A stretch of 64,000 nucleotides of DNA from Mycobacteriales bacterium (GCA_041743105.1 JBGTNI010000010.1:13589-77588), one strand, 5' to 3'. Positions 42,475 to 60,535 are shown, counted from the stretch's first letter. Numbers and translations are program-made. The notes: generated by a model from the sequence alone, not told the origin.

Positions 42475-45327
42475 CTAGCAGGGCGGCAGCTTCCCCCGCT
42501 CTATACCACTGGTCCACGCGTACGGAATGAAGGCGCCGTTGTCCAGGCGAAACCATTCCGTGCCTTCTTTGTTGCCGTTGTACATCCAGGATGTGATGTG
42601 CTGACCCTGGGCTTGGCAGGTGGCGGTGATGGGTGTGCCGTGGGGGAGAGGGCCGAGCATCCGGCTCTGCTGGCTGGACTCTTCGAAGGTGCGAATTCCG
42701 CCGTTGCAGTAGTCCGGGTTCGCGGTGCCCGCACTCACGCACGCCACCGTACCGCTGCCCCCGGCCGGCGGCGGCGGTGCAGGTGCGGGTGCCGGTGGCT
42801 GTGTCGGTTGGGGTTGCGGTTGGGGTTGGGGTTGCGGTTGGGGTTGCGGCTGCGGTTGGGGTTGCGGTTGGGGTTGCGGCTGCGGTTGGGGTTGGGGTTG
42901 CGGCTGCGGCTGCGGTTGGGGCTGTGGCTGCTCGCCGGGCACCAGCACCATGACAGACCGACCGGGTCCAGTTCCGGCCTCGTTGACGGCGGCAACCGTG
43001 ACCGTGATGGTCTGCCCCGCCGGCAGCCCGGTCAGCTGCTCGCTCATAGCGTTCCTACCATCGGCATTGGAAACCGGAACAGTGCGCCGCAATCCGGTGT
43101 CGGTGCTGACGGTATAGCCGGTGATAGGTTTGCCGTTGGTGATCGGCGGTGTCCACGAAACGTTCACCGCGCCCGGGCCGGCACCTTCGGCGCTCACTAT
43201 CGGCGCACCGGGGCTGCTGAACGCGTCGACCGGGTCACTGGGCTGCGACGCATCGCTCGACGCGTTGTTAGTCAGCGTGACCACCACGGTGAAGGTGTAG
43301 CTCGCGCCCATCGTCAATGACTCGGCCTTCACCGTGTAGCCGATAGGGCCCGTAGCGCTCGCAGAGTCAGGAGGGTCGATGTTGTCGATCACCACTTGGC
43401 CACCGGCGGTGCTGGTCTGGCCGGTGAGCTGATAGGAGCGCACGGTGCCGCCGTTGGTCTCCGGTGGCTGCCAGCTCACCGAGATACTGCCGTCGGGTTG
43501 GCCGCGACGGTTGGCCTCTGCGGTTACCGAAGTGGGAGGATCGGGCACTACTGACGTGGGGGTGACCGGGTTGGCCTTGGCGGCCTCGCCCTCACCCTTG
43601 GCATTCACCGCACGCACCGAGAACTCGTACGCCTTGCCGTTAGTCAGCCCGGTGACGTTCACCGAACATGGCTTGCCGGCCGCACAGGTATTTCCGGCTA
43701 CCTCTACTGGTCGGAGACCGCCGGTGACGATGTATTTGGTGATCGTGCTACCACGTGGGTCGGCGGGGCGCCACGAAATGATCGCGGATTCGTCACCGGC
43801 CTGCGCCCCGACGTTAGTCGGCGCGGTCGGCGGCAAGGAGTTCTCGGCCTGTTCGTCGGGGTCGGGAGCTGGTGAGCCGGTGTCGCCCGGCTCCGGACGC
43901 TCCGGTGTCCGATCCGTGCCGGGAACCCGCGGCAAATCGGGGAGTCGCGGCTTAGAGATCTGCGCACCGTCCCCCTGGCCGGCTTCCTCGCCTTGGCCGT
44001 TCCCATCCCCCTGCCGACCGTCGCGATCTTGACCCGGCTGGGTGTCGTTCCCACCGTTGTCGCCGTTGCCGTCTTGACCGTCAGTTGCCCTGGGGTCCAC
44101 GCGCCGGTTCGGGCCTTCGCCATTGACGATGTCTTTGGGTGCTTTCGCCAGCTCGGTGACCTTGTGCTTCTCATCGATCACCCAGGCCTTGTTGGTCCCC
44201 ACCGAGTTGATGACCAGGTGGTCTTCCCGGTTCTCCAACTCGACCTTGCCGCCGGGGTCGTCGATGTCTTCCAGGCTGTTGCCCCGCAAGTCGAAGACCC
44301 GCACTCGGTTGGCTTGCTCGTCGGGCACATACAAGCGTTCGGAGAACGCAATGGCCGGGCCGATCTTGTCGCCGACACCGGGAATAGACACCGCCCGTGC
44401 GTCATCGTTATCTACCAGCACCACTTTACGATCGTCGGGGTTGGTGATGGCCACGGTATCTCCGCGCACACGACTGAGCATCACGGCCTCGCCGACGTCG
44501 GGGAGCTCCATGGATGACACCGAGCCATCGGCCTTAGCCTTGATTAAGGTGTTCTCAGCGCGGTCGACCACGGCGGCACCGTGATCGAGCACGCCCATCG
44601 ACCACTTGTGACCGGCACCACCGACGGAGACTTCACGCTCTACCGACGGGCTCTTGCCGCCGCTACCAGGTCTGATCGCTACGGCTTTTCCAGCCTTGGG
44701 TGAACCGACCCAGAGCAGGCCGTCGTCGTCGAACTCCCCGCCCACCAAGTTCGATCCCTCGCCCACTAAGTCCGACGAGAGCTTAAACGCGCGACCCCGG
44801 GGTTCCATCTTGCCGGCCTCGAGCTGGCGGAACAGACCATTAGCGGTATCGACGAGCATTACGTTCGAACCGAAGAGTGCCACGCTCATGTCGGCAGGCG
44901 AGGAGGTGGAAGCGACCCCGGAGACATTGAGCGTGCTCAGCTCCACGGAGGTTATGGTCCCGGTTTCGAGATCGTGCAGCAGCAGGTGTTCGTCGGTCTG
45001 TATCACCCTGACCCGATGGCCACGGGCATCCGACAGCGAGCGACGCATATCTACCTGACCCGCTGACGCGTTGATCCTCACCGCCTCGCTTCGATTGCCG
45101 TCCCACAACCAGATCGCACCGTCGGTTAGCGACAATGCTCGGCTGACAGCCCCGGCGCCGAAGAGAGTGATTACCATTGCCGCAACAGTGGCGATAATTA
45201 CACCAACTGAGACAAATCCCCCGGCGCCTCGACGCGAAGAAGTTGGCAGGCGTCGACGAAGACTCCTCGCCAAGCGCCCACGCTGCCGAATGGCACGGTC
45301 GTCGGCACCGACCACGGAGGTAGCCAT
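42475..45327 (-). CDS. single-pass membrane protein: ~350-aa ectodomain, 3 FN3 domains, (PQ)20 spacer, Cys-containing C-terminal domain
   Basis: Arg-rich cytoplasmic tail and a TM segment (FVSVGVIIATVAAMVITLF). Three FN3-like units are recognisable (..ISWRPADPRGSTITKYIV.., ..VSWQPPETNGGTVRSYQL.., ..VSWTPPITNGKPITGYTV..). The C-terminal ~95 aa carry 4 Cys. Confidence 0.7.
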   Translation of the reverse strand: MATSVVGADDRAIRQRGRLARSLRRRLPTSSRRGAGGFVSVGVIIATVAAMVITLFGAGAVSRALSLTDGAIWLWDGNRSEAVRINASAGQVDMRRSLSDARGHRVRVIQTDEHLLLHDLETGTITSVELSTLNVSGVASTSSPADMSVALFGSNVMLVDTANGLFRQLEAGKMEPRGRAFKLSSDLVGEGSNLVGGEFDDDGLLWVGSPKAGKAVAIRPGSGGKSPSVEREVSVGGAGHKWSMGVLDHGAAVVDRAENTLIKAKADGSVSSMELPDVGEAVMLSRVRGDTVAITNPDDRKVVLVDNDDARAVSIPGVGDKIGPAIAFSERLYVPDEQANRVRVFDLRGNSLEDIDDPGGKVELENREDHLVINSVGTNKAWVIDEKHKVTELAKAPKDIVNGEGPNRRVDPRATDGQDGNGDNGGNDTQPGQDRDGRQGDGNGQGEEAGQGDGAQISKPRLPDLPRVPGTDRTPERPEPGDTGSPAPDPDEQAENSLPPTAPTNVGAQAGDESAIISWRPADPRGSTITKYIVTGGLRPVEVAGNTCAAGKPCSVNVTGLTNGKAYEFSVRAVNAKGEGEAAKANPVTPTSVVPDPPTSVTAEANRRGQPDGSISVSWQPPETNGGTVRSYQLTGQTSTAGGQVVIDNIDPPDSASATGPIGYTVKAESLTMGASYTFTVVVTLTNNASSDASQPSDPVDAFSSPGAPIVSAEGAGPGAVNVSWTPPITNGKPITGYTVSTDTGLRRTVPVSNADGRNAMSEQLTGLPAGQTITVTVAAVNEAGTGPGRSVMVLVPGEQPQPQPQPQPQPQPQPQPQPQPQPQPQPQPQPQPQPQPQPQPTQPPAPAPAPPPPAGGSGTVACVSAGTANPDYCNGGIRTFEESSQQSRMLGPLPHGTPITATCQAQGQHITSWMYNGNKEGTEWFRLDNGAFIPYAWTSGIERGKLPPC
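42808..42927. repeat. hexanucleotide tandem repeat encoding (Pro-Gln)x20
   Basis: 20 consecutive CCN-CAR units counted codon by codon on the minus strand. Confidence 0.9.
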
Positions 45328-45420
45328 TGTCTATGTCTCCCGGCATTCTCCCGGCGTCCGCAAATGGGGCTGTCTATAAGCTTATCCTGAGCGACACGGC
45401 TTACGGCAGGTTAAGACAGC

Positions 45421-45469
45421 GAACATGGGCCGAACGTGGGAGGCTCATAGCCACGAACGGCCCATGTTC
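45421..45469. promoter_or_regulatory. 12-bp perfect inverted repeat in the divergent FN3-gene / kinase intergenic region
   Basis: gaacatgggccg (45421-45432) pairs with cggcccatgttc (45458-45469). Confidence 0.35.
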
Positions 45470-45512
45470 CCAATTGACCCGATGTAGCACAATGCGGGCG
45501 CCTGCCCGGTAA

Positions 45513-45541
45513 GCTACTTTCGGGCTGACTTGGTAACGAAC
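45513..45541 (-). promoter_or_regulatory. second copy of the ~29-nt motif seen upstream of pyrH
   Basis: gctactttcgggctgacttggtaacgaac. Read on the minus strand it gives TCGTTA-N17-TAGCTT, about 190 nt upstream of the FN3-protein start. Confidence 0.4.
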
Positions 45542-45618
45542 AGCTCTGTACGCAGCGACAAACTGCCCTCATCAGAGGCACAATGGAGTCGTAACTACTG
45601 CGGTGGGGAGGGTAGGCA

Positions 45619-47799
45619 ATGAACGCTGAGGCCGACACGACCACCTATCTCCCCCGCGAGACACCGGTCACGCCACCACGACCTGTCACCTCCGGCATTC
45701 CCGACACCGTGGTGCCACTGTCAGCGGGCTCTATCATCCCCGGCCTGATGGGATACAGCGGGCTGGAGCTGATAGCCCATGGCAGCAGCGCGATCGTGTT
45801 TCGTGCCACTCAGAACAGGCTCAACCGCAAGGTAGCCATCAAGGTGTTACTGATCGACGATGTGATGACCACCGACGTTACGGTGCGTCGTGAACTGGAG
45901 ACGCTAGTTCAGCTCTCGAGTTCTCCCCACATCGTGAGCATCATCGACACCGGCGTCACCGATGCGGGCCAGCCCTACATTGTAATGGAGTACTGCGAGG
46001 GCGGTTCTTACGCGCAGATCCTCAAAGAACGTGGCCCGTTGCCGGCCGAGGAAGTCATCGAGGTCGGCATCAAGATCGGCGAAGCGCTGCACGCCGCACA
46101 TGAGGCCGGAATCATTCACCGCGACGTCAAGCCGCCGAATATTCTCCGCTCGCGGTTTGGCCCCGCCCTCACCGACTTCGGTATCGCCTACGCCGCCGAT
46201 GAGCTGGCCAGCACCGACACGTTCTATAAGCTCACACCGCACCATGCTTCCCCGGAGACGTTGCAGCAGGAGCACCAGACCGGGCAGTCCGACCTCTACA
46301 GTCTTGCCTCCACCATGTGGAATCTGCTGGCAGGGCGCCCCCCGTTCGCAAACCCCGGTCAAGATCCCGACGCGTTCCGACAGCGCGTGCTCAGCCAACC
46401 GGTTTCGCGGGTACCCCGCGACGACGTCCCCGACTGGTTACAGTCCGAGCTAGAGCGCGCCATGGCCAAGCGGGCGACCGAGCGCCATCCCACAGCACTG
46501 GCTTTCGCCGAAACGTTACGTCTGAACATGGCACGCACCTCGATGTCGGCGCCATGGCAGCCACGCAGCTCACCGCCGGGCGAAAGCCTCTCCTCCCCGG
46601 AACCCACCAGCAGCTATACCCAAGCGGCCACTCAAACGCAACGCACCCGTCCGAACGCGGTGCCGCCGGTATCGCCGGGTGGGTCGCCAGTGGTGATGCT
46701 GCCGGGTGCGATCCCGCAGCCCACCCCGTCCGCTGCGCCCACGAGCGGCGCGACGGTGCAGACACCGCCGGTGATCATCCCATCTTCGGCGCCCACCAGC
46801 GGTAGCACCGTCACGGTGGGTCGAACCGCCCATCCGCCGAACTCTGCCGCACTGCCCGTGGTCCTTCCGGGCGGGATCCAGGCGTCTGCTCCCACACAGC
46901 AGCGACCTTCCTCGGCGCAGCCGGTGGTCCAGCCGAAGTCAGTACCGGCGCAACAGACCGAACAAACGCAGCAGGTCGAGCAGTCGCAGCCTGAATCGGC
47001 GGCACCCCAACCCGCGTCAGCGCCGCGAACCTACAAGTCGCGGCCATCGCATGTGCCGCTGCCGCTGGACCAGCGAGAAGAAAGCGCGGGTACGGCCGAG
47101 CTGACCACGGGCGGCGGCACGGCGTCTACCCTGCCGGGGCGCACATGGTTCGAGCCGGCAAGCTCGCCTGGCGGCTCGTCCCCGGCAATCTCGCCGTACC
47201 AGCACGATTACACACCGCAGGCCGGCCTCCCACAAACCAGTATTCCGCAAGCCGGCATGGCCCGCACCGAGACCACGTCGGCTCCGCAGCCACACGAAAG
47301 TCCCTACAGCCGCGCCTACGAGGATTTAGACGAAGAGGACGACGAACGGTTCTCCTGGCGGCGGCCGCTAGTCACCGCCGGCGTCATCGGCGTGATTCTG
47401 GGCCTGATCACCACTGTCGGAATCATCGTGGCCGGCGGTGCCGAGTCGGACAAGGAAGCAGACTCCAGCCCCACTGCCTCGGCTTCCATCGTCGCCGAGG
47501 GGAAACCCACGAACGTCACTCTGGCTGACAACGGCAGCGCGGTAACCTTGCAGTGGAAAGACAACACGGGAGATCAAGCCGGGGTTTTCATCACCGCCCG
47601 GCCTGCCAGTGCGGCCCTAGGCCGTGTCGTCGCAACACCGGCCAAGGGCCAGACCAGTTATACGGTCTCGTCGATCGATGGCAAGCCACTGGACGCAAAA
47701 ATTGACTACTGCTTCCAGATTACGGCAGTGCCCTCTACCGATCATCTCGCTTTATCCGAAGTGGTGTGCACCGAACGCAGCGGCGCCCAAACCAACTGA
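45619..47799 (+). CDS. receptor-type Ser/Thr protein kinase (Hanks type) with FN3-like ectodomain
   Basis: A good SD (ggggaggg) precedes the start. Motifs VAIKVL, HRDVKPPNIL and DFG are present. A long Pro/Ser/Ala/Gln linker leads to a TM segment (VIGVILGLITTVGIIVAGG), then a ~140-aa beta-rich C-terminal domain. Confidence 0.85.
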   Translation: MNAEADTTTYLPRETPVTPPRPVTSGIPDTVVPLSAGSIIPGLMGYSGLELIAHGSSAIVFRATQNRLNRKVAIKVLLIDDVMTTDVTVRRELETLVQLSSSPHIVSIIDTGVTDAGQPYIVMEYCEGGSYAQILKERGPLPAEEVIEVGIKIGEALHAAHEAGIIHRDVKPPNILRSRFGPALTDFGIAYAADELASTDTFYKLTPHHASPETLQQEHQTGQSDLYSLASTMWNLLAGRPPFANPGQDPDAFRQRVLSQPVSRVPRDDVPDWLQSELERAMAKRATERHPTALAFAETLRLNMARTSMSAPWQPRSSPPGESLSSPEPTSSYTQAATQTQRTRPNAVPPVSPGGSPVVMLPGAIPQPTPSAAPTSGATVQTPPVIIPSSAPTSGSTVTVGRTAHPPNSAALPVVLPGGIQASAPTQQRPSSAQPVVQPKSVPAQQTEQTQQVEQSQPESAAPQPASAPRTYKSRPSHVPLPLDQREESAGTAELTTGGGTASTLPGRTWFEPASSPGGSSPAISPYQHDYTPQAGLPQTSIPQAGMARTETTSAPQPHESPYSRAYEDLDEEDDERFSWRRPLVTAGVIGVILGLITTVGIIVAGGAESDKEADSSPTASASIVAEGKPTNVTLADNGSAVTLQWKDNTGDQAGVFITARPASAALGRVVATPAKGQTSYTVSSIDGKPLDAKIDYCFQITAVPSTDHLALSEVVCTERSGAQTN

Positions 47800-50228
47800 G
47801 CATTCAGTACCTCCTGAGGTGACGGAGTGGGCCACGACGGCGGCCGCTGGACGGTAACGGCACGCTCTCGCTCCAGCCGGTGGCTACGCGCCCACAACAG
47901 CGGACCGGGCCGCAACGGCCACAACGCCCGGCGAAACCACCGCTGCCGCCTTTGCAGCTCGCGCACGTACTCGCTTGCGTCGGCGACTGCCTGATCGACG
48001 TGTGGTCGGAAGATCAGTCCCGGTGCGAACTCCACCGCGTTCACTACGGAGGCGAGTTCTTGTAAGGACGGTAGCGGTTGCCGATGCCCCGGTGTGAGCG
48101 TCGCGGCCATGTCGGCCACGTCGTGCGCGGCCAGATGGGGTGGCGGGCGATGTCGCGCCAAACGCATAGCATCGGCCACGTGCGCCCAAGCGCCGATCAC
48201 GCGCTGCGCAGGGTCAGCGGCACCTAACCGGCGTCGGCACAATAGGACACGTCCGAAGACCACCGCTAGTATGCCTAACACCAGCAGCGCCACAAGACCG
48301 ATCCCCACCAGCATGCCAATGTTAAGGATCTTCTCCCCGGTAGCTTGACTACGAGTGCCCGTGGACGGACCATCCGGCGATGGCTCGGGATTAGGGTTCT
48401 CGAGCTCCCGCAGCTGATCCTGCTTAGCACGGTTCTGCTGCTGTGCCTCCGGCGTGGCTTGATCCGGCGGGATAGAGGTGTCGTCGTTCGGCCGGGGGGA
48501 AGGGTCGAAAGGCACCCAGCCGTAACCGGCGAAATACACCTCCGGCCACGCGAAAGCGTCGCCAGCGGTGACCATGAAGCGGCCATCGCTTTGCGGAGTG
48601 CCGGCGTGGAAGCCGACTGAGACACGGCTAGGCAGCCCAGCGATGCGAGCCAGGAGCGCAAACGCGGTGGCAAACTGCTCCGAGGTCCCACGCTGCCCTC
48701 CTTGCTCCTTGGCGACAGTGAGGAAGAAGTCCAAGTTGGCCAAGCCATGACCAGACGAGGCCTCCGGGGTGAACGTGAAGTTACGCAGCAAGAACTGCTC
48801 AATCAGCAGCGCCCGGTTATACGGAGTCGCCGCCGGTGCGATCACGCTCGTTGCCAGCGAGACGATGCCGTCGGGCAGATTGGACGGCACATCGGCATAG
48901 CGCCGGATGTCCGGAGAGTCCGACAGGGCGGCATCGGAGAGCTTGCCGACATTGAAATCCGGGCGCCTCGACCGCACGTCATACTGCAACCCGGTGCGCA
49001 AACCCTCGGCCGTGACCAGCGATCCCGTGGTCGGGTCATAGGAGACCCGCACATCGGTGACTTGGCGCGGCTGCTCCACTGCCGGCAGCCACACTCCATC
49101 GAGGGTCAGCATCGTGTATTCCTGATTCACCGCGGTGCTGTTTGGGGACTGGTCACTGACAGGAAGCACCGATCCAGCCGAGCGATACTCGCTGCCGGGC
49201 AACCAGGACAGGCCGTTGTAATCGGTGAGCGTCACCCAACGAATCCGGCTAGGCACGTTGGTCTCCACCGTAAACAGCTGCTGCTGCGGAGCCCGGGCCC
49301 AGCCCGACAGCCGGCCGAGCGGATTAGATTCGGGAAGCTGCTGCTCTGGTGGCGGGATACGCGTTCGGGGATCGCGGGGCTTCACATCGGACAGACCCAC
49401 CACGGTGGGAGCCAGAACCAGTGTGGCAAGCATCAGTGCCACCAGACCCAGTCCACCGATCGCGGCACGCCGGATGCGGAACGCCTTGCGGGAGGCTGCT
49501 CCCAGCTGCCGCAGTACGTGACTGATGGTGGGGTCCCCGCTGAACGCCAGTCCCAGCGCCGCCACTCCCGCGAAGGCAACCGCCAGGGGTAGCGACGCGG
49601 CAGCGTTGGGCCCTACGAGCACAAGCGCGATCACATACGCCATCGCCGGCGCTACGAACCCGGCGAGCACCGTGCGGGTCCGTAGCGTCAGCTCAGCACC
49701 GGTCAGACCAGCGATCCAGACCACTACCAGCGGGAGCACAACGGTCTGCGGCGTCGGCATCACCGGGATCGTGCTCGTGAGGATCTGCGCACCAGAGTTA
49801 CGGATCGATTCGAGGAACAGCGCCCCTACACTGCCGGTGCCCGGTTGCCGAGTCCAGGCAACTGCCGCGACAAGGTAACCGACCATCACCACGATCGAGA
49901 CCGTGATGGACGCCAGCAGCGATGTCCGCAGTCCCCGCAACGATGCGCTGGCCGCCACCGACAACACTGCCGCCCCGGCCAGCAAGAACAACAGGAAGGA
50001 GCCGGAATAAATCCGGGTGAAGGCCGAGCCAGCGATGATCAACAAACCAGCAAGAGCTGCCGCGCTGAGTACATCGCGTCCGGTGAGAGCATCGGTCATT
50101 GTAGGCAAAGGAGCGGTGTCATGCCGGTCGACTTTGGCCTCCGTGGCCGGTCCATGCTGGGACGACTCCTGCCGGGATGGCAGCTGATGAGGCACGGTAT
50201 CGGCTACCACGAGCGCACCTCGTCCCAC
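47742..50228 (-). CDS. polytopic transglutaminase-like (TgpA-type) protein with non-canonical triad
   Basis: N-terminal TM bundle. The core region reads RGTSEQFATAFALLARIAGLPSRV...DAFAWPEVYFAGYGWVPFDPSP, followed by a second TM segment. Its GTG start overlaps the DUF58 stop. Confidence 0.7.
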   Translation of the reverse strand: MGRGALVVADTVPHQLPSRQESSQHGPATEAKVDRHDTAPLPTMTDALTGRDVLSAAALAGLLIIAGSAFTRIYSGSFLLFLLAGAAVLSVAASASLRGLRTSLLASITVSIVVMVGYLVAAVAWTRQPGTGSVGALFLESIRNSGAQILTSTIPVMPTPQTVVLPLVVVWIAGLTGAELTLRTRTVLAGFVAPAMAYVIALVLVGPNAAASLPLAVAFAGVAALGLAFSGDPTISHVLRQLGAASRKAFRIRRAAIGGLGLVALMLATLVLAPTVVGLSDVKPRDPRTRIPPPEQQLPESNPLGRLSGWARAPQQQLFTVETNVPSRIRWVTLTDYNGLSWLPGSEYRSAGSVLPVSDQSPNSTAVNQEYTMLTLDGVWLPAVEQPRQVTDVRVSYDPTTGSLVTAEGLRTGLQYDVRSRRPDFNVGKLSDAALSDSPDIRRYADVPSNLPDGIVSLATSVIAPAATPYNRALLIEQFLLRNFTFTPEASSGHGLANLDFFLTVAKEQGGQRGTSEQFATAFALLARIAGLPSRVSVGFHAGTPQSDGRFMVTAGDAFAWPEVYFAGYGWVPFDPSPRPNDDTSIPPDQATPEAQQQNRAKQDQLRELENPNPEPSPDGPSTGTRSQATGEKILNIGMLVGIGLVALLVLGILAVVFGRVLLCRRRLGAADPAQRVIGAWAHVADAMRLARHRPPPHLAAHDVADMAATLTPGHRQPLPSLQELASVVNAVEFAPGLIFRPHVDQAVADASEYVRELQRRQRWFRRALWPLRPGPLLWARSHRLERERAVTVQRPPSWPTPSPQEVLNAQLVWAPLRSVHTTSDKAR

Positions 50229-51367
50229 ACAGAGGAGAATTCGTCGGCATCCTTCGCACCGATCACCAACATTCCGGCGTCGCTGCTTGTTCTAGAAACT
50301 TCGCCGCCGATCACGGCCACCAGAATCGAGGGATACATCCCCCGCAACGATGCGATCGGCGCGATATCGTTCTCGCCGTGCACTCCGGTGAGCACGACGA
50401 GCGTGTCGCCGAGCCGACGAGCGTGAAGCCGGTCGATGGCGAACGCCATCGACGTCTCACCGGTGAGCTCGGACTCACCGGTGAGCTCGGCCTCCGCGAT
50501 GGTGTCCATAAACGTTTGCGTTCCCAAGCTGCCCTCACTACCACCGATTGCGGCGCCACCAACGATCTGCAGGTTCACGTGCAGACCGGCGCGAAGTGCG
50601 GCGACTACCACCGACGCAGCTGCATCGGCCGCCGACTCGAAGGCCTCTGGATCGTGATACGCCGCGCGGCGGTTATCCAGCAGCACCACCAGGCGCGGCA
50701 ACGAAGTGTCCACGTGCTCGCGCACCATGAGCTGACCCACCCGCGCCGCGGTACGCCAATGCACATGCCGCAGGTCGTCGCCTGGAACGTACTCACGGAG
50801 CGCGTGGAAAGTGATCGAGCCATGCTCGACTTGGTCCACCGCACCGTCGAGGCTACGAGCCCGACCGACTGGGACGCTGTGCAGCTGTCTAGGCGCCGGG
50901 TGTACCCAGACTTGCCGAGTTCCGCCGTACTCCCGGCTGATGCGGATGATGTCCAGCGGATCCCGGCGTTCGATGCGTAACGGTCCTACCGTGACCACTC
51001 CACGTCGTCGGGTGGGTAGCGGATACTGAACCGCGGTGACCTTGGCCGGACCGAGCCGCACCACCGGCACCGTCACGGTGCTTTGGCCACAGCGGTCGAA
51101 CGCGATGAGGTCCACGCCTCGCCACCGGGCGTGATTGCGCACGCTGACCAGGCCGAGGCATTCTTCACCGCGCACCACCCGGTCGGGCTCCACGTCGCGG
51201 TGCACATCCAGCGTCCAACGACGCAGCGCGAAGATAAACGCCCCGCAGAAAGCCAGCACGGCGGCAACACCGATCACGGTCAGCTCGTCATAACCAAAAA
51301 TCAGCCCACCCGTGATCAACGCAATACCCGCCAGCAGCAGCCCAACGCCCCGGCGAGTCACCCGCAT
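50204..51367 (-). CDS. DUF58 (vWA-like) protein
   Basis: SD aggagg. Two N-terminal TM segments and the DUF58 signature DDLRHVHWRTAARVGQLMVREH. Confidence 0.75.
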   Translation of the reverse strand: MRVTRRGVGLLLAGIALITGGLIFGYDELTVIGVAAVLAFCGAFIFALRRWTLDVHRDVEPDRVVRGEECLGLVSVRNHARWRGVDLIAFDRCGQSTVTVPVVRLGPAKVTAVQYPLPTRRRGVVTVGPLRIERRDPLDIIRISREYGGTRQVWVHPAPRQLHSVPVGRARSLDGAVDQVEHGSITFHALREYVPGDDLRHVHWRTAARVGQLMVREHVDTSLPRLVVLLDNRRAAYHDPEAFESAADAAASVVVAALRAGLHVNLQIVGGAAIGGSEGSLGTQTFMDTIAEAELTGESELTGETSMAFAIDRLHARRLGDTLVVLTGVHGENDIAPIASLRGMYPSILVAVIGGEVSRTSSDAGMLVIGAKDADEFSSVWDEVRSW

Positions 51368-51415
51368 AGCTGGCCTCCTTTCCTAGTCATCATAGGCTCA
51401 CTCTCCTACGGGTTT

Positions 51416-51565
51416 GGGCCGCTCCAGGTGTCGGCTGGCAAGGCCGCAGGAGCCGCCGCGTACACGGCCGGAGCGCAGCGGGGGAAGTACGCAAGGCGAA
51501 CGCCCGGGTGGCGGGTGTGTCCAGCACGAGCATTGGGCCGCCGGCGGGCAACTGGTGGGGCCCTG
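51416..51565 (+). repeat. REP-like element, family C copy 3 (MoxR-DUF58 intergenic)
   Basis: ccaggtgtcggctggcaaggccgcaggagccgccgcgtaca...gcaaggcgaacgcccgggtggcgggtgt aligns with 8789..8942. Confidence 0.7.
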
Positions 51566-51576
51566 AGAACCCTCCG

Positions 51577-52698
51577 CTATCGTTGCCCGGCGCTTTGTGG
51601 ATATGGCTGAGACGGCGCAGGGGGGCCCGAGTACATGGTCGGAGTGAGGCGGGAACCGCGTCCCGTCTCCGCGCCTGTCGGAGGCGTGGAAGTCACCGGC
51701 GCGGTGGGGGGCTGCTGAGCACCTGGGCGTGGCACCGAGACCGATTCCACGACGTCCCGCAGCGCCGCTACAGCGCTGCGACCGCGCAACGCGGCGTCCG
51801 GTGACATCACCAAACGGTGTGCGTACACCGGTTCTACAAGGGCCTTGATGTCTTCGGGCACTACGTATCCGCGCCCCTGAGAGAGCGCATAAACCTGCGA
51901 AGCTCGGGTGAGGGCAATCGCGCCGCGTGGGCTCACGCCCACCCGGACATCGGGCACTTCGCGTGTCGCGGCAGCCAGACTGACCATGTAGGAATACAAC
52001 GGTGGCGCGATGTATACCCGCTGCGCCAGACTGATCAACCGCGTGACGGTCTCGGTGTCGGTCACCGGACGCAGGGCATCCACCGAACGACCACCGACAG
52101 CACCGCGGACCACATCGATTTCCACGGCTTCGGTGGGATAGCCCACCGAGATGCGCATGATGAATCGGTCGAGCTGCGCCTCCGGGAGACGGTAGGTCCC
52201 GTCCATCTCGATCGGGTTCTGGGTGGCAACTACCAGGAACGGCCGCGGCACACCGTGGGCGACCCCGTCGATGGTGACATTGTGCTCCTCCATGACCTCC
52301 AGCAACGCTGACTGGGTCTTGGGCGAGGCCCGGTTGATCTCATCGGCGATGACGACGTTGGCGAAGACGGGACCGGGATGGAACTCGAAGGTCCGGCTTG
52401 CCTGGTTGAAGATGGTTACGCCGGAGACGTCGGAGGGCAGCAGGTCCGGTGTGAACTGGATTCGTCGCCACTGGCCTTGCACGCTGGCGGCGATCGCCCG
52501 AGCAATCGTGGTCTTACCGACGCCAGGCACATCCTCGATCAGCAGGTGTCCTTCGGCGAACATCGCGGTGAGCGCCAACCGGACAACGTCGGCTTTGCCG
52601 AGTAGTACCGCCTCCACATTCATCGCGATGCGACCGAACGCATTGCCGAACGTCGATACTTCAACCGGGCTCAATTGATCGGTGTAATTGCCGGTCAC
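51577..52698 (-). CDS. MoxR-family AAA+ ATPase (Pro-rich C-terminal tail)
   Basis: Walker A DVPGVGKT and Walker B VIADEINRA, with the typical MoxR length plus a ~60-aa tail. Confidence 0.85.
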   Translation of the reverse strand: MTGNYTDQLSPVEVSTFGNAFGRIAMNVEAVLLGKADVVRLALTAMFAEGHLLIEDVPGVGKTTIARAIAASVQGQWRRIQFTPDLLPSDVSGVTIFNQASRTFEFHPGPVFANVVIADEINRASPKTQSALLEVMEEHNVTIDGVAHGVPRPFLVVATQNPIEMDGTYRLPEAQLDRFIMRISVGYPTEAVEIDVVRGAVGGRSVDALRPVTDTETVTRLISLAQRVYIAPPLYSYMVSLAAATREVPDVRVGVSPRGAIALTRASQVYALSQGRGYVVPEDIKALVEPVYAHRLVMSPDAALRGRSAVAALRDVVESVSVPRPGAQQPPTAPVTSTPPTGAETGRGSRLTPTMYSGPPAPSQPYPQSAGQR

Positions 52699-52959
52699 CG
52701 CTGATCTCCATCCTGCGTGGGGCTGGTAGTGATCACAGTATGACGTCTAGGCCACACTCGGCCACAGTAGAGGCACGGTACTCGCACCGGACGTCCGATA
52801 CTCACCGATCGTCGCTATCGTTACCTCACGAAGCAACCAAAACATCTAGATGCATCGAATGTTTCTCGGCGGTATTCGCAGCTGCCGCCCACGGCTCCGC
52901 CGGATGACGTGCTGACGGCAACAGAGTAGAACGGCATTTAATGGATAACCAGCACGCTG

Positions 52960-54627
52960 GTGGCCAAAGAGTCATCCGCAGCTAAAGGGGAGACCGTGCA
53001 GAAGATCCGATTTTTCCGGCGAGGCATCCTCGCTCCGTTGTGTGGAGTAATAGCCACCGCGGTAGCACTCGGCGTCGCCGAGCTGGTCGCGGCGCTACTT
53101 CGCCCGCAGGCGTCGCCGCTGGTCACTGTCGGTCAGACAGTGATCGACGCGACGCCTACCTCAATGGAGCAGTGGGCGATCCGCACCTTCGGTAGCAACG
53201 ATAAGGCCGTGCTCTTAGGTGGCATCCTGGCGATGCTGACCATCTTCGCCGCCGTCGTCGGATACCTGGCGAGCCGGTACCTGCCGATCGGCGTGGCCGG
53301 GGTGATTTTCTTCGGTGTCGTCGGGGTGATAGCCGCGCAGACCAGACCCTCATCGGAGACAACTGACATCGTGCCCGCCATCGCGGCGGTCATCGCCGGG
53401 GCGCTGGCGCTGATCTTCCTGATCCGCGCACTACCACCTCGCGAACCTGCCTCACTTCCGGCGGCCGATGACTCCGAGAAGGCGGAAGCACCCGAGGCCT
53501 CCCACGGCGGCACAGACACCACGGGCGCCGAGCCGGCCACAATTTCGGCGAAGTCCGAGTACTCACGTCGCGGCTTGCTGATTCTAGGATCGGCCCTGGG
53601 TGCCAGCGCTATAGCCACTGCTTCAGTTGGCCGCTGGCTACAAGGAGTGCTCTACAACGCAACCGCGTCCCGCGATGCGGTGAAGCTTCCCGTGCCGGTG
53701 AGTGCCGCGCCACCGATCCCGGCCGGCGCCACGCTGGATATCGGCGGCATCAGCAGCTTTGTGACACCCAATTCCAAATTCTACAAAGTGGACACCGCGC
53801 TCGTGGTACCTCAGATACGAACTCAGGATTGGCAGCTGCGCATCCACGGCATGGTGAAAAAGCCGATCACGCTCACCTTCGACGAGCTACTGGAACTACC
53901 CATGATCGAACGAATGATCACCATGACGTGCGTCTCTAACCAAGTCGGCGGAGACCTGGTCGGCAACGCGACCTGGCTTGGGGTGGCACTGGGACCGTTC
54001 CTCTCCGAACGTGGTGTCTCGGCAAAGGCGGATCAACTGGTCTGCCGCTCGGTAGATGGTATGACCATCGGAGCGCCGCTGAAGCAGATCCTCGACGGAC
54101 GCGACGCACTGTTGGCGATCGGAATGAATGGCGAACCACTGCCGTTTAACAATGGTTTCCCGGCACGGGTGATCGTGCCGGGTCTGTATGGCTACTGCTC
54201 GGCGTGCAAATGGGTAGTGGACATGGAGGCAACCACGTTCGATGCCTTCGACACCTACTGGGTGAAGCGCGACTGGGCACAGGTCGCACCGGTCAAGATC
54301 TCTGCCCGCATCGATACTCCCGAGCCGCTCAGCAGTCCTCAAGCGGGGCAGATCGACATCGCCGGTGTGGCGTGGGCGCAGGATCGCGGCATCTCCAAGG
54401 TTGAGGTCAACGTGGACGACGGCCCGTGGCGGGAGGCGGATCTTGCCGAGCAGATATCGGAAGATGTCTGGCGGCAATGGGTTTACCGGTGGGACGCCTC
54501 GCCTGGCCGGCACAAGCTCACCGCGCGTGCCACCGATGGCAATGGACAGGTCCAGGTGCAGCAGCGCGTAAAGCCGTTTCCTGACGGTTCCAGTGGCTGG
54601 CACAGCAATGTCGTAACGGTTAAGTAA
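52960..54627 (+). CDS. membrane-anchored molybdopterin-dependent oxidoreductase (sulfite-oxidase fold)
   Basis: N-terminal TM region, then the molybdopterin-binding-domain pattern ITMTCVSNQVGGDLVGNATWLGV and a C-terminal Ig-like dimerisation-type domain. The start is uncertain. Confidence 0.7.
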   Translation: MAKESSAAKGETVQKIRFFRRGILAPLCGVIATAVALGVAELVAALLRPQASPLVTVGQTVIDATPTSMEQWAIRTFGSNDKAVLLGGILAMLTIFAAVVGYLASRYLPIGVAGVIFFGVVGVIAAQTRPSSETTDIVPAIAAVIAGALALIFLIRALPPREPASLPAADDSEKAEAPEASHGGTDTTGAEPATISAKSEYSRRGLLILGSALGASAIATASVGRWLQGVLYNATASRDAVKLPVPVSAAPPIPAGATLDIGGISSFVTPNSKFYKVDTALVVPQIRTQDWQLRIHGMVKKPITLTFDELLELPMIERMITMTCVSNQVGGDLVGNATWLGVALGPFLSERGVSAKADQLVCRSVDGMTIGAPLKQILDGRDALLAIGMNGEPLPFNNGFPARVIVPGLYGYCSACKWVVDMEATTFDAFDTYWVKRDWAQVAPVKISARIDTPEPLSSPQAGQIDIAGVAWAQDRGISKVEVNVDDGPWREADLAEQISEDVWRQWVYRWDASPGRHKLTARATDGNGQVQVQQRVKPFPDGSSGWHSNVVTVK

Positions 54628-54736
54628 CGGAAACATCCACTATGAGAGGCTGAACCGAAGGCTATGCGATTGCAGTGACTACATTGCAAGCGCATAGCAC
54701 GACTAGTCACAGCTACGTGCAGAAAGAGAGTCTTTA

Positions 54737-55372
54737 ATGTTGAAACGTAAGATCGCTACATTGCTAGCGGTCGGAGCACTCACCATCTCGCTCGCCGCGT
54801 GTGGTGACGACTCCAAGGATGACAGTTCCAGTGACAACAAGGCCGAGCCTTCGGCGTCCGCACCCGCCGCTGGCCCCTTCGGCGCGGGATGCGCAGGCGT
54901 GCCGACAGAGGGCGAGGGCAGCGTCGAGGGCATGACCGATGACCCGGTAGCTACCGCTGCCAGTAACAATCCTCTACTGTCCACTTTGGTCACAGCTGTT
55001 AAGGCAGCGGACTTGGTCGACACGCTCAACGGCGCAGAGGCCCTCACCGTCTTCGCCCCGGCCAACACTGCCTTCGCGAAGATTCCTGAGGCCGACTTGA
55101 AGGCGCTACTGGCCGACAAGGAACAGCTGACCAAGGTTCTGAGCTATCACGTGGTCGCAGGCAAGCTCTCTCCTGAGCAGCTCGCCGGCACCCACAAGAC
55201 CTTGGTGGAAGGCACGGAGCTGACCGTGACAGGCAGCGGCGAGAACTTCACCGTTAACGGCGGCTCCAAGGTGGTCTGTGGCAACGTGCAGACCGCTAAC
55301 GCCACCGTGTATGTCGTCGACACCGTGCTCGATGTTTCGACCAAGAGCGTCATGGGAGCGAAGCAAAGCTAA
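54737..55372 (+). CDS. fasciclin (FAS1) domain lipoprotein
   Basis: Lipobox LAACGDD; FAS1 motifs TVFAPANTAF and LSYHVVAGKL. Confidence 0.8.
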   Translation: MLKRKIATLLAVGALTISLAACGDDSKDDSSSDNKAEPSASAPAAGPFGAGCAGVPTEGEGSVEGMTDDPVATAASNNPLLSTLVTAVKAADLVDTLNGAEALTVFAPANTAFAKIPEADLKALLADKEQLTKVLSYHVVAGKLSPEQLAGTHKTLVEGTELTVTGSGENFTVNGGSKVVCGNVQTANATVYVVDTVLDVSTKSVMGAKQS

Positions 55373-58321: not shown

Positions 58322-60535
58322 TCAACCCCTCAAGTCCCGTGCGGCGCGACCACGTTGCGCGCTGAGCCGTCGCGGCAAACGTGCCCGCTCCGCCGTGGTG
58401 TCATCGTCTGCCGCCGAGCGAGCGTCCCACACGGCGTACGCGTCGACGATCTCACCCACCAAACGGTGACGCACGACATCTTCGCTGGTCAGCGATGAGA
58501 AATGCACGTCATCGACATCGCCGAGAATCTCGCGGACAAGTTTGAGACCGCTGTGGGTGTTGCCGGGTAGATCCACCTGCGTAATGTCGCCGGTTACCAC
58601 GATCTTGGACCCGAAACCTAGCCGGGTTAGGAACATCTTCATCTGCGCCGGTGTGGTGTTCTGCGCCTCGTCGAGGAGTATGAAAGCGTCGTTGAGCGTG
58701 TTATGCGTCAACAGGTAATCCTCGGTGACATAGAGTGCATCAGCTGCCGCCACCTGGATGCATACCGTCTCCGCCCGCCCTGCGGGTTCGATGCTGTCGA
58801 TGAAACGTAGCGGCCGGCCGCCACCTTCGGCGGCGTGGTACTTCTTCCGCTTACGGGTGAGACGGAAAGGTTCAACGCCGGCGGGAAGACGGATGTCGAT
58901 GATGTACGCATCATGGCGATAGCCAATCTCACGGCCGCGCACCTGGCCCGATTTCCTTCCCTGCACTGCCCGGCGGCGGACATACGCCACACCACCCAGC
59001 GATCGGACCAGACGGATCACGCCGTCCCTAAGCATTGGCGATGTGGTGGTGTACTGGACGCGGCAGGTCCGGTCGACCTGGATGACCGGTCCACCATCGG
59101 CGTCCAGCAACCCATTGAGGACAGCGAGACGGACCGCAGCGCTGTTGTAGAGGTAAGCATCCGGAATGAACTTCGAGTGTGAACGAGTGCCCAGCAAGTT
59201 CAACGAGCGCAGTGCTCCGGTCACCGGGTTCTCCAGTGTGACGACATCACCAGATGCCCTCACACGGTTGAGGGTGTAGTTCACTCGGTCCTTCCACCGC
59301 ACCTTGACCCCTGGGAGGAGCAGCTCTAGCGCGGAGACGAGTTCCGGATCCTCGGTGGCGAAGGCGGGAGTGGTCGAACCCGTCAGGCAGCCGTCACCAA
59401 GTAGCAGGCCGAGGGCATACGGTTCCATGGGGATCTTTAGTTCGGGGTGGCACACTGGTGCGGTAAGCAGCGGTAGTTCGTATCGACGGGCATGGGCGGC
59501 ACGAAGGTTACCGATCATTTCCTTGGTTTCGAGGACGCGCCAGGGCTTGCCGCGACGGCGATCAGACGCCGTCGCGACCGTCCAGAGGTGATCGCCGCAG
59601 CACAACGTTGAGGCGTCGTCCTGAGCTGTGACGCGGTACACGTCCTTCTCGCCTTGCGGAAACACACCAAGAACCGGGGTCGGTTCCCCGTTAGAGCCGA
59701 TGACGAGATCACCTATTTCCAAGCCACCGATCGGGCAGAAACCGTTTGGAGTCAGTACTTTAGTGAAGATAGGTTGGGCACGTCCCCGCATGTACGCCAG
59801 CGGCGCGACCTCGATGGTTCCGGCTTGCATTAGCCGCGGGATCGAGTCGGCGTCGAGCATGTCGTGCAACGCATCGTAGAGCGGTCGCAGATAGGGGTCG
59901 ATTTTCTCGTACAGCGTCCCCGGCAAATACCCCAGCCGCTCCCCAGCTTCGACAGCGGGGCGCGTGAGAATGATGCGGTTCACCGTCTTGGCTTGCAGTG
60001 CCTGCACCGCCTTGGCCATCGCCAGGTAGGTCTTGCCGGTTCCCGCCGGCCCGATGCCGAAGACAACCGTGTGAGCATCGATCGCGTCCACATAGCGCTT
60101 CTGGTTCAGGGTTTTAGGACGAATAGTGCGACCACGACTCGACAGTACGTTCAGCGTGAGCACATCAGCGGGACGTTGACCGTCGGTGAGTGGGGTAGCA
60201 AGCATGTCGATGGCGCGACGGGCAGCGTCCGGCGTCAGAGGCTGATCGCGCTCGATCAACGCAAGTAACTCGCGAAAGATACGTTCGGCTAAGGCATTCT
60301 GTGCCGGCGTACCGGTGAGGGTAATTTCGTTTCCCCGAACCAGAATGTCGGACGCGACAGCACCCTCGACCACTTTAAGGATCTCGTCACCGGAACCGAG
60401 CAGGCTCATCATGTCGGCCGGGCCTACCACCATACGGCTCTGCTGTGTGGTCCCGATATCTGGAACATGCGGGTGTGCTGCGGCATGGTCGGTAGGGGGT
60501 CGTGCGACAGGTTCTGACATATGGTTGCCGCTCAT
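58322..60535 (-). CDS. phoH: PhoH-like ATPase interrupted by an intein
   Basis: Walker A GPAGTGKT. The sequence ...APLAYMRGR | intein | [15 protein letters not shown]... is interrupted. The ORF is 737 aa, and removing the 360-aa insert leaves 377 aa. Confidence 0.85.
58700..59779 (-). mobile_element. intein (Ala1, ...THN/T junction) with LAGLIDADG homing-endonuclease domain
   Basis: Residues 253-612 of the ORF. It starts AQPIFTKVL and ends YLLTHN, followed by Thr+1. LAGLIDADG-type motifs [10 protein letters not shown] and [10 protein letters not shown] are present. Junction codons were checked base by base. Confidence 0.75.

Follow-up and report, generated by a model that had tools for sequence, protein, structure and literature searches.

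The 64,000-nucleotide stretch analysed here (the window; Mycobacteriales bacterium, GCA_041743105.1, JBGTNI010000010.1:13589-77588) carries a five-gene locus that includes a TgpA-like membrane "transglutaminase" whose catalytic Cys and His have been lost. Pfam searches placed the five core genes all inside 42475..52698, in the order surface protein (minus strand), receptor-type Ser/Thr protein kinase (plus strand) and then TgpA-like protein, DUF58/vWA-like protein and MoxR ATPase (minus strand; Table 1). The last three open reading frames (ORFs) were found where an earlier note, made from the sequence alone, had located them; that note had missed a fifth partner, the gene for the surface protein, as well as the likeness of the locus to the PFNA and Esr clusters described below. 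The GTG at 50228 is the start of the longest ORF of the TgpA-like gene only, and translation more probably begins at the GTG at 50210. The database gene call uses this second codon, which gives a protein of 822 amino acids and has the sequence GAGG 7 nt upstream. This start overlaps the DUF58 stop codon (TAG, 50206..50204) by 7 nt. The previously described overlap between the DUF58 stop and a GTG start holds for either codon, while the proposed start at 50228, and with it the length of 828 amino acids, is the less likely of the two.

Table 1. Genes of the locus and segments of the TgpA-like protein, with positions counted from the first nucleotide of the window (TM, transmembrane; AF2, AlphaFold2).
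Feature	Position	Strand	Length or residues	Basis and remarks
MoxR-family AAA+ ATPase	51577..52698	-	373 aa	Pfam
DUF58/vWA-like protein	50204..51367	-	387 aa	PF01882
TgpA-like polytopic membrane protein	47742..50228	-	828 aa (longest ORF)	TgpA_N and Transglut_core
N-terminal bundle of 7 TM helices	49395..50081	-	residues ~50-278	N-terminus inside; AF2 helices, hydropathy, positive-inside rule
Extracytoplasmic domain	48321..49394	-	residues ~279-636	beta-sandwich and transglutaminase-fold core; no Cys
Transglutaminase-like core	48495..48860	-	residues 457-578	triad columns occupied by S516, F559 and D575
Last TM helix and Arg-rich cytoplasmic helical domain	47745..48320	-	residues 637-668 and 669-813	AF2, hhalign
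Receptor-type Ser/Thr protein kinase	45619..47799	+	726 aa	Pkinase
Membrane-anchored surface protein	42475..45327	-	950 aa	fn3 x3

The triad positions of the TgpA-like protein are occupied by S516 in GTSEQFA (codon TCG, 48681..48683), F559 in DAFAW (48552..48554) and D575 in FDPS (48504..48506), and this Ser/Phe/Asp reading, put forward in the earlier note, was confirmed by three independent alignments. In a phmmer comparison with the PDB, the three residues fell on the Cys, His and Asp columns of the solved TgpA periplasmic domain from P. aeruginosa (6G49; GFCAHYA / DAHAW / DPT); a MAFFT alignment with 65 homologues, including canonical ones (GYCEQFA / DAHAW / F(D/E)PT), gave identical triad columns, and a phmmer-anchored alignment of 150 more cluster representatives agreed in the same columns. 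The sole Cys of the protein, C664, lies where the last TM helix meets the cytoplasm, while the ectodomain contains zero Cys and only two His, H494 and H541. A Cys/His pair displaced to another part of the domain, which had been named beforehand as the finding that counts against the triad reading, is therefore excluded. The Cys-His-Asp catalytic triad that is a feature of the TgpA family is absent from the window protein, and the catalytic Cys and His of this membrane "transglutaminase" are lost.

The domain architecture of the TgpA family (PF11992 and PF01841) is present, together with the fold of the TgpA periplasmic domain. Pfam located TgpA_N at residues 62-424 and Transglut_core at residues 457-576 (E 1.6e-18), and the AF2 model of the protein had a mean predicted local distance difference test score (pLDDT) of 83.7. 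The best fold match in the PDB, obtained with Foldseek, was the TgpA periplasmic domain (6G49/6G4H; E ~1e-12, template-modelling score on the target 0.73-0.75, ~300 columns). Hydropathy, the positive-inside rule and the AF2 helices put the core on the outer face of the membrane, the same layout as in TgpA, whose core was shown to be periplasmic (PMC3507681). Homology to the C-termini of canonical proteins extends over the last TM helix and the cytoplasmic domain (hhalign, degenerate versus canonical sequences: probability 99%, E 3e-18). Since MoxR is cytoplasmic and the body of DUF58 is predicted to be so, the TgpA-like protein alone connects the two sides of the membrane.

The loss of the triad was also investigated in relatives of the window protein. 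An exhaustive HMMER search against 1.84 billion cluster representatives, clustered at 50% identity, retrieved 22,591 relatives, of which the best 150 were examined (E below 6e-53); a C-H-E triad was present in only three of these 150 nearest representatives. The motif GTSEQFA occurred in all 35 of the closest word-index matches, which ranged from 100% down to 34% identity and belonged to metagenome-assembled genomes of Mycobacteriales and to Micromonospora, Planosporangium and Mangrovihabitans. Among 212 pooled full-length homologues, a sample skewed toward relatives of the query, 189 were without the Cys and His pair. Within this degenerate set, the Cys position (516) was occupied by S (125), A (22), P (14) and T (7), as well as by D, E, F, Y, Q and R; the His position (559) by L (53), F (37), Y (20) and H (19), with V, I, M, R, E and T also found; and the Asp position (575) by D (112), Y (25), F (15) and N (11). 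At least 90% conservation was observed for G514, E517, Q518, F519, A520, R528, P533, R535, G539, W561, E563, G570 and W571, and each of these 13 framework residues is also the commonest residue in the canonical set. The combination of a kept scaffold with a relaxed active site is the signature of a pseudoenzyme, and the pseudo-enzyme reading offered in the earlier note is well supported by the clade-wide loss of the triad with retention of the fold framework and of the cytoplasmic domain.

A neighbour-joining tree, built with the triad columns masked, midpoint-rooted and without support values, was divided at its root into 186 actinobacterial sequences, all degenerate, and a clade holding 13 canonical sequences. 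From this topology, obtained with a sample biased toward relatives of the query, the loss of the triad is apparently a clade trait that arose in a single event, the actinobacterial degenerate sequences being monophyletic. The orders named in the clade are Mycobacteriales, Micromonosporales, Propionibacteriales, Streptosporangiales, Glycomycetales and Micrococcales, and Ala variants (A-H-D/E) were found in several of its earliest-branching lineages. The triad residues differ among genera, being S-F-S in Nocardioides, S-L-Y in Actinoallomurus, S-L-D in Phytomonospora, D-H-D/N in Arthrobacter, Pseudarthrobacter and Clavibacter, and D-A-D in Leucobacter. The Ser codons are TCC or TCG and the Phe codons of the Chloroflexi TTC or TTT, all counted as one step from TGC; the Ser codon family was considered as a test of selection and set aside, being compatible with descent from Cys and silent on selection for Ser.

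Two further variants of the active site were observed. Several Micrococcales members (P0043, P0045, P0234, P0235 and others; loci L066, L069 and L074) carry Asp at the Cys position, with the motifs GDDEQYA / DVHAW / FDPT in which His and Asp are kept. Asp-His-Asp is the triad type of haloalkane dehalogenases, and this Micrococcales subclade, which occurs in full Esr-like clusters, might not be simply dead. A separate MoxR-DUF58-TgpA-like lineage was found in Chloroflexota / Dehalococcoidia (loci L012-L064), with Phe-Phe-Asn/Ser at the triad positions (GYFDYHA / xAFAW / F(N/S)PT); the genome scan pattern, FAWPEVYF, favours the His-to-Phe change and biases this sample. Two Chloroflexota sequences in the tree nest among the canonical ones, and no kinase or FN3 homologue was detected near loci L012-L064.

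Genomic context analyses were based on loci obtained from a genome scan and from exact-protein look-ups, and the comparison of 14 degenerate with five canonical loci reflects this uneven sampling. The complete degenerate loci are those of the window, L001, L002, L004-L006, L009-L011, L065, L066, L069, L071 and L074; L007 and L008 are truncated and were not counted among them, and no FN3 homologue was detectable in L003. A surface-protein gene lies beside the module in all 14 complete degenerate loci with a detectable homologue and in none of the five canonical loci. It is located directly upstream of MoxR in Fodinicola (L005), Nocardioides (L006), L009-L011, Micromonospora (L065), Arthrobacter (L066), Leucobacter (L069), L071 and L074, and just past the kinase gene in the window, L001, L002 and L004. 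A Ser/Thr kinase gene is convergent with the module or upstream of it in all complete degenerate loci except that of Micromonospora (L065). Genes for PP2C and FHA proteins are added in the Arthrobacter and Leucobacter loci (L066 and L069), and an FHA-EccC fusion occurs in L066 and L074; phmmer searches with the PP2C, FHA and EccC proteins from L066, L069 and L074 found no homologue in the 64-kb window. The canonical Cys-His loci, those of Blastococcus (L067) and Dactylosporangium (L068) together with L070, L072 and L073, have DUF3040 and dinB genes downstream in four of five cases, and L067 adjoins mraZ and the dcw cluster; PF13559 (DUF4129) was called in canonical members only. The dead form of the protein goes with the surface protein and kinase context, and the split between the two kinds of loci is clean. 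The earlier note had suggested analysing the co-occurrence of the trio with the kinase, and this combination indeed recurs across degenerate loci of actinobacteria. The claimed tie to the receptor kinase was upheld insofar as the kinase gene is a conserved neighbour in Mycobacteriales, Fodinicola, Nocardioides and Micrococcales loci, and corrected insofar as it lies convergently on the plus strand, outside the operon.

The surface protein is composed of an Arg-rich cytoplasmic tail, a TM helix (residues 38-60), a beta-rich N-domain (61-400), three FN3 stretches (Pfam fn3, E 1.1e-30), a (PQ)20 linker and a Cys-containing C-terminal domain. The N-domain, of 340 amino acids, has homologues in the Micromonospora and Nocardioides loci and in L071, and is probably a beta-propeller: a single-sequence AF2 prediction, of low confidence (pLDDT 57.5), gave Foldseek matches at E ~1e-7, and those of recognisable fold among the matches listed were all beta-propellers. 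Weak NHL-repeat matches were also found in the sequence of the protein (E 0.4-1.2). The other complete degenerate loci likewise encode membrane-anchored surface proteins, in which a probable beta-propeller is combined with FN3 or Big_9 repeats. The perfect (PQ)20 tract is encoded at 42808..42927 (minus strand) by a 6-nt tandem array of about 19 copies, which only the closest relatives share and which is a likely site of length variation. The linker was considered as a Gln-rich ligand of the dead transglutaminase, and this idea was rejected, as (PQ)n occurs only in L001 and L004, the other loci having PT, PN or PD repeats or none.

MoxR showed matches to AAA_3 (E 2.6e-62) and AAA_lid_2 (E 9.2e-21), and the Walker A (GVPGVGKT) and Walker B (VVIADE) motifs are both intact in its translation; from these motifs the ATPase is predicted to be active. 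The features of the MoxR-proper type are present (AAA_3 core, Walker A/B, lid and a DUF58 gene directly downstream on the same strand), and the MoxR-then-DUF58 arrangement is kept in all related loci. A bpMoxR match (30.6 bits, Pfam cutoff 27) was rejected as a marker, being common to canonical and degenerate loci. The DUF58 protein (PF01882, 41.3 bits against a gathering cutoff of 23.4) begins with a two-helix membrane hairpin, the remainder being predicted to be cytoplasmic. A correlated loss of its metal-ion-dependent adhesion site (MIDAS) was also rejected, since 'LLDxR' at the MIDAS-equivalent position is identical in canonical and degenerate loci. The gene contains an 18-nt tandem duplication (50456..50494, minus strand) that encodes ELTGES-ELTGET. 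The kinase (Pkinase, E 4.5e-38) contains VAIK, HRDVKPPN and DFG motifs, from which its catalytic domain looks active, followed by a Pro-rich linker, one TM helix and an extracellular domain of ~110 amino acids with weak Ig-like matches.

The conservation of MoxR, DUF58 and TgpA as an operon has long been recognised (PMC3495828; PMC3507681). The three-gene order of the window is that of P. aeruginosa, with MoxR (PA2875), DUF58 (PA2874) and TgpA (PA2873), and TgpA and the window protein are alike in their polytopic N-domain, outward beta-sandwich and core, last TM helix and cytoplasmic tail. In contrast to the Ser-Phe-Asp of the window protein, which has no Cys on the outside, the Cys-His-Asp triad is intact in P. 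aeruginosa TgpA, whose periplasmic domain acts as a transglutaminase in vitro (PMC3507681). TgpA is essential in P. aeruginosa, and neither a kinase nor an FN3 protein is associated with it.

A likeness was also found with two actinobacterial systems. The PFNA cluster of Bifidobacterium comprises pkb2, fn3, aaa-atp and duf58 as well as tgm, optionally joined by prpC, a hypothetical gene and fha (PMC8430577), and shares five core gene products with the window; the likeness is one of gene content, as the PFNA order pkb2-fn3-aaa-duf58-tgm on one strand is not found in the window, where the kinase gene is convergent and the surface-protein gene lies beyond it and not upstream of MoxR. The window further differs from PFNA in having no phosphatase or FHA gene nearby and in its host, a free-living Mycobacteriales-like organism. 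The exact eight-gene PFNA order is present in Leucobacter L069, together with a D-A-D 'triad', and L009-L011 have the PFNA order apart from a convergent kinase. The Esr system of Schaalia odontolytica, a threat-sensing pathway, includes EsrA, a surface filament in which an N-terminal beta-propeller is followed by Ig-like repeats, as well as MoxR, vWA and EsrD proteins, a kinase, a phosphatase and an FHA protein, and often lies beside Esx genes (bioRxiv 10.64898/2026.09.08.750141). It shares with the window MoxR, the vWA protein, the transglutaminase-like protein and the Ser/Thr kinase. Esr2 is described with an FHA-EccC fusion, and the same fusion occurs in Arthrobacter L066 and in L074, whose transglutaminase-like proteins lack Cys. 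Judged from sequence and gene content, the window carries the five-gene core of a PFNA/Esr-like envelope module, a reduced form of Esr.

In contrast, the ternary systems of MoxR, vWA and beta-propeller (Kaur et al. 2020) were rejected as a parallel; there the vWA domain is fused to the propeller, mainly in Bacteroidetes, Planctomycetes and Proteobacteria, while the DUF58 protein of the window has no propeller and the putative propeller belongs to the separate surface protein. Transglutaminase-like domains that serve as non-catalytic binding modules are known from Cyk3 (PMC3495828) and Rad4 (PMC3386208). In the eukaryotic proteins Cyk3, Rad4/XPC, CC2D2A and erythrocyte band 4.2, a transglutaminase fold that has lost its catalytic residues serves for binding or scaffolding, as proposed here; they belong to another lineage and context, however, and bacterial polytopic membrane proteins with a link to MoxR and DUF58 are not among them. 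Catalytic residues are not discussed in the PFNA papers or in the Esr preprint, and no report of a cysteine-less TgpA clade was found in literature searches. Both the operon and the type of cluster have been described before; the loss of the triad throughout the clade, and its strict link to the surface-protein and kinase context, seem not to have been reported.

The functional unit is the set of five genes, including the surface protein and the receptor Ser/Thr kinase. Cysteine-type catalysis in the TgpA-like protein can be set aside with high confidence, and a model in which this protein, without catalysis, bridges the membrane as an adaptor from the surface protein to the cytoplasmic MoxR-DUF58 pair is, taken as a whole, reasonably probable. 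The protein spans the membrane, with the dead cleft outside and the conserved helical domain inside, as topology and homology show. The cleft would bind, and not modify, an envelope polypeptide, most likely the co-encoded surface protein, and would hold or position it, by analogy with Schaalia, where deletion of esrD1 releases EsrA1 (bioRxiv 10.64898/2026.09.08.750141). The cytoplasmic domain would couple to the membrane-tethered DUF58 protein and to MoxR, as suggested by their conserved gene order and translational coupling, and these two proteins would assemble, remodel or reset the complex. The kinase might relay the signal or output, or regulate the ATPase as feedback, since Pkb2 was reported to phosphorylate the MoxR protein in B. 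longum (PMC8430577).

Some observations weigh against the adaptor model. To the extent that sequence can tell, loss of the triad does not prove the absence of every activity; Ser516 is kept in 66% of clade members, and H494, in an 'SGH' motif 22 residues upstream of position 516, is enriched in the clade (71%, as compared to about 20% in canonical proteins). The surface protein has its own TM anchor, so that its retention by the TgpA-like protein may be unneeded. The analogy with Esr is incomplete, the window having no phosphatase, FHA output protein or Esx linkage and its surface protein being TM-anchored.

The persistence of Ser516 and H494 is the basis of the reading in which catalysis continues without cysteine, the protein being a serine-type peptidase or acyltransferase that uses S516 as nucleophile, a substitute base such as H494, and D575. 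GTSEQFA is strongly conserved, Ser being present in 125/189 degenerate homologues and accompanied by H494 in 100 of these 125, and transglutaminase-like domains with Ser for Cys were suggested to be potentially active (PMC3495828). The examples so proposed, however, retain His and the acid, whereas the canonical His is Phe here and L, Y, V, I, M, R, E or T in relatives, a hypervariable position. In about one clade member in three, Ser has itself given way to Ala, Pro, Thr, Glu, Asp, Phe or Tyr, and Asp575 is Tyr, Phe, Asn or Ser in 40%. An S516-H494 dyad is unlikely on the pattern of conservation, H494 being enriched but not obligate and not tied to Ser: it is Ser, Gln or Asn in 29% of members and is also found with Ala or Pro at 516. 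The residues observed at 516 (S, T, D, P, A and E) are favoured at helix N-termini, and the AF2 helix 516-529 begins exactly at S516; the conserved Ser is best explained, on this model, as a helix N-cap residue and not as a nucleophile. The non-cysteine variant, one of the two possibilities raised in the earlier note, is disfavoured and appears quite improbable.

Loss of enzymatic activity is compatible with more than one role. The dead ectodomain could itself be a sensor of a non-protein ligand, for example a peptidoglycan fragment, and could signal to MoxR-DUF58 and to the kinase without involvement of the surface protein; it faces outward, the cytoplasmic domain is conserved, and the PFNA authors proposed a ligand-binding role for TGM (PMC6803598). 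Such independence is hard to reconcile with the adjoining surface gene in 14/14 degenerate loci with a detectable homologue and 0/5 canonical ones, or with the specific release of EsrA1 upon esrD1 deletion in Schaalia, and this alternative is considered unlikely, though the least so of the rivals. A decaying relic that drifts toward a pseudogene and has no function would account for the relaxed triad positions; intact ORFs of ~750-850 amino acids are nevertheless found in several actinobacterial orders at identities as low as ~30%, conservation reaches 80% or more at no fewer than 50 positions, including the fold framework, the gene order is kept, the start overlaps the DUF58 stop and the AF2 model is confident, all of which makes decay very improbable. 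That the protein is an ordinary active TgpA orthologue and Ser/Phe an error of alignment is suggested by its domain architecture and fold, which are those of TgpA, but is already refuted by the agreement of three independent alignments and by an ectodomain without Cys, and its probability is negligible.

The adaptor model extends to a broader proposal with about an even chance of being right: all TgpA-like proteins of the PFNA/Esr type in Actinomycetes, EsrD included, would be dead or Cys-less, following one ancient conversion to a non-covalent, sensor-holding adaptor that signals to MoxR-DUF58, while enzymatic function would be left to the canonical Cys-His paralogue encoded close to the cell-division cluster. 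The authors of the Esr study proposed covalent anchoring of EsrA1 by EsrD (bioRxiv 10.64898/2026.09.08.750141), whereas cysteine chemistry is impossible for the window protein and for the sampled Esr-like homologues; the covalent anchoring of Esr sensors is thereby made directly testable.

MoxR-DUF58-TgpA operons are very common and their mechanism is unexplained, and published models assume enzymatic activity of the transglutaminase-like partner, which is regarded as a peptidase (Zhang and Aravind 2012) or as a crosslinker (the Esr preprint; the 'putative transglutaminase' of PFNA). A whole actinobacterial branch keeps the operon, fold, topology and cytoplasmic domain and drops the nucleophile, and thus the MoxR/DUF58 partnership in this branch is independent of catalysis. 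The family offers a natural separation-of-function set of four forms, namely the canonical C-H-D found near dcw, S-x-x, the D-H-D of Micrococcales and the F-F-N of Chloroflexi, and these results argue against the annotation of such proteins as 'transglutaminase' or 'cysteine protease'.

Additional features were observed within and around the locus. The MoxR stop and the DUF58 start, an ATG preceded by a strong GGAGG, are separated by a non-coding spacer of 209 nt (51368..51576), while elsewhere the called MoxR and DUF58 genes abut or overlap; the spacer might contain an internal promoter or regulatory element. A promoter and terminator scan of 45200..53100 gave fewer matches than shuffled sequence and found nothing in the spacer, and was uninformative. 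The convergent kinase and TgpA-like genes overlap at their 3' ends by 58 nt (47742..47799), the encoded tails being both predicted or likely to be disordered; this overlap is absent in the closest relatives, L001 and L004. Divergent from MoxR, at 52960..55372 (plus strand), lie genes for a sulfite-oxidase-like molybdopterin oxidoreductase of 555 amino acids with Big_7 and for a fasciclin-domain protein, which are kept beside the cluster in L001 and L004 and absent in L002 and L003. The whole block sits between era and recO-uppS. At 58322..60535 (minus strand), a gene for a PhoH-like ATPase is split by an insert of 360 amino acids (about 58700..59779) with a LAGLIDADG_3 domain. The insert follows directly after ...APLAYMRGR, has Ala as its first residue and ends in ...THN, followed by Thr; it resembles an intein that carries a homing endonuclease, perhaps of a class with N-terminal Ala.

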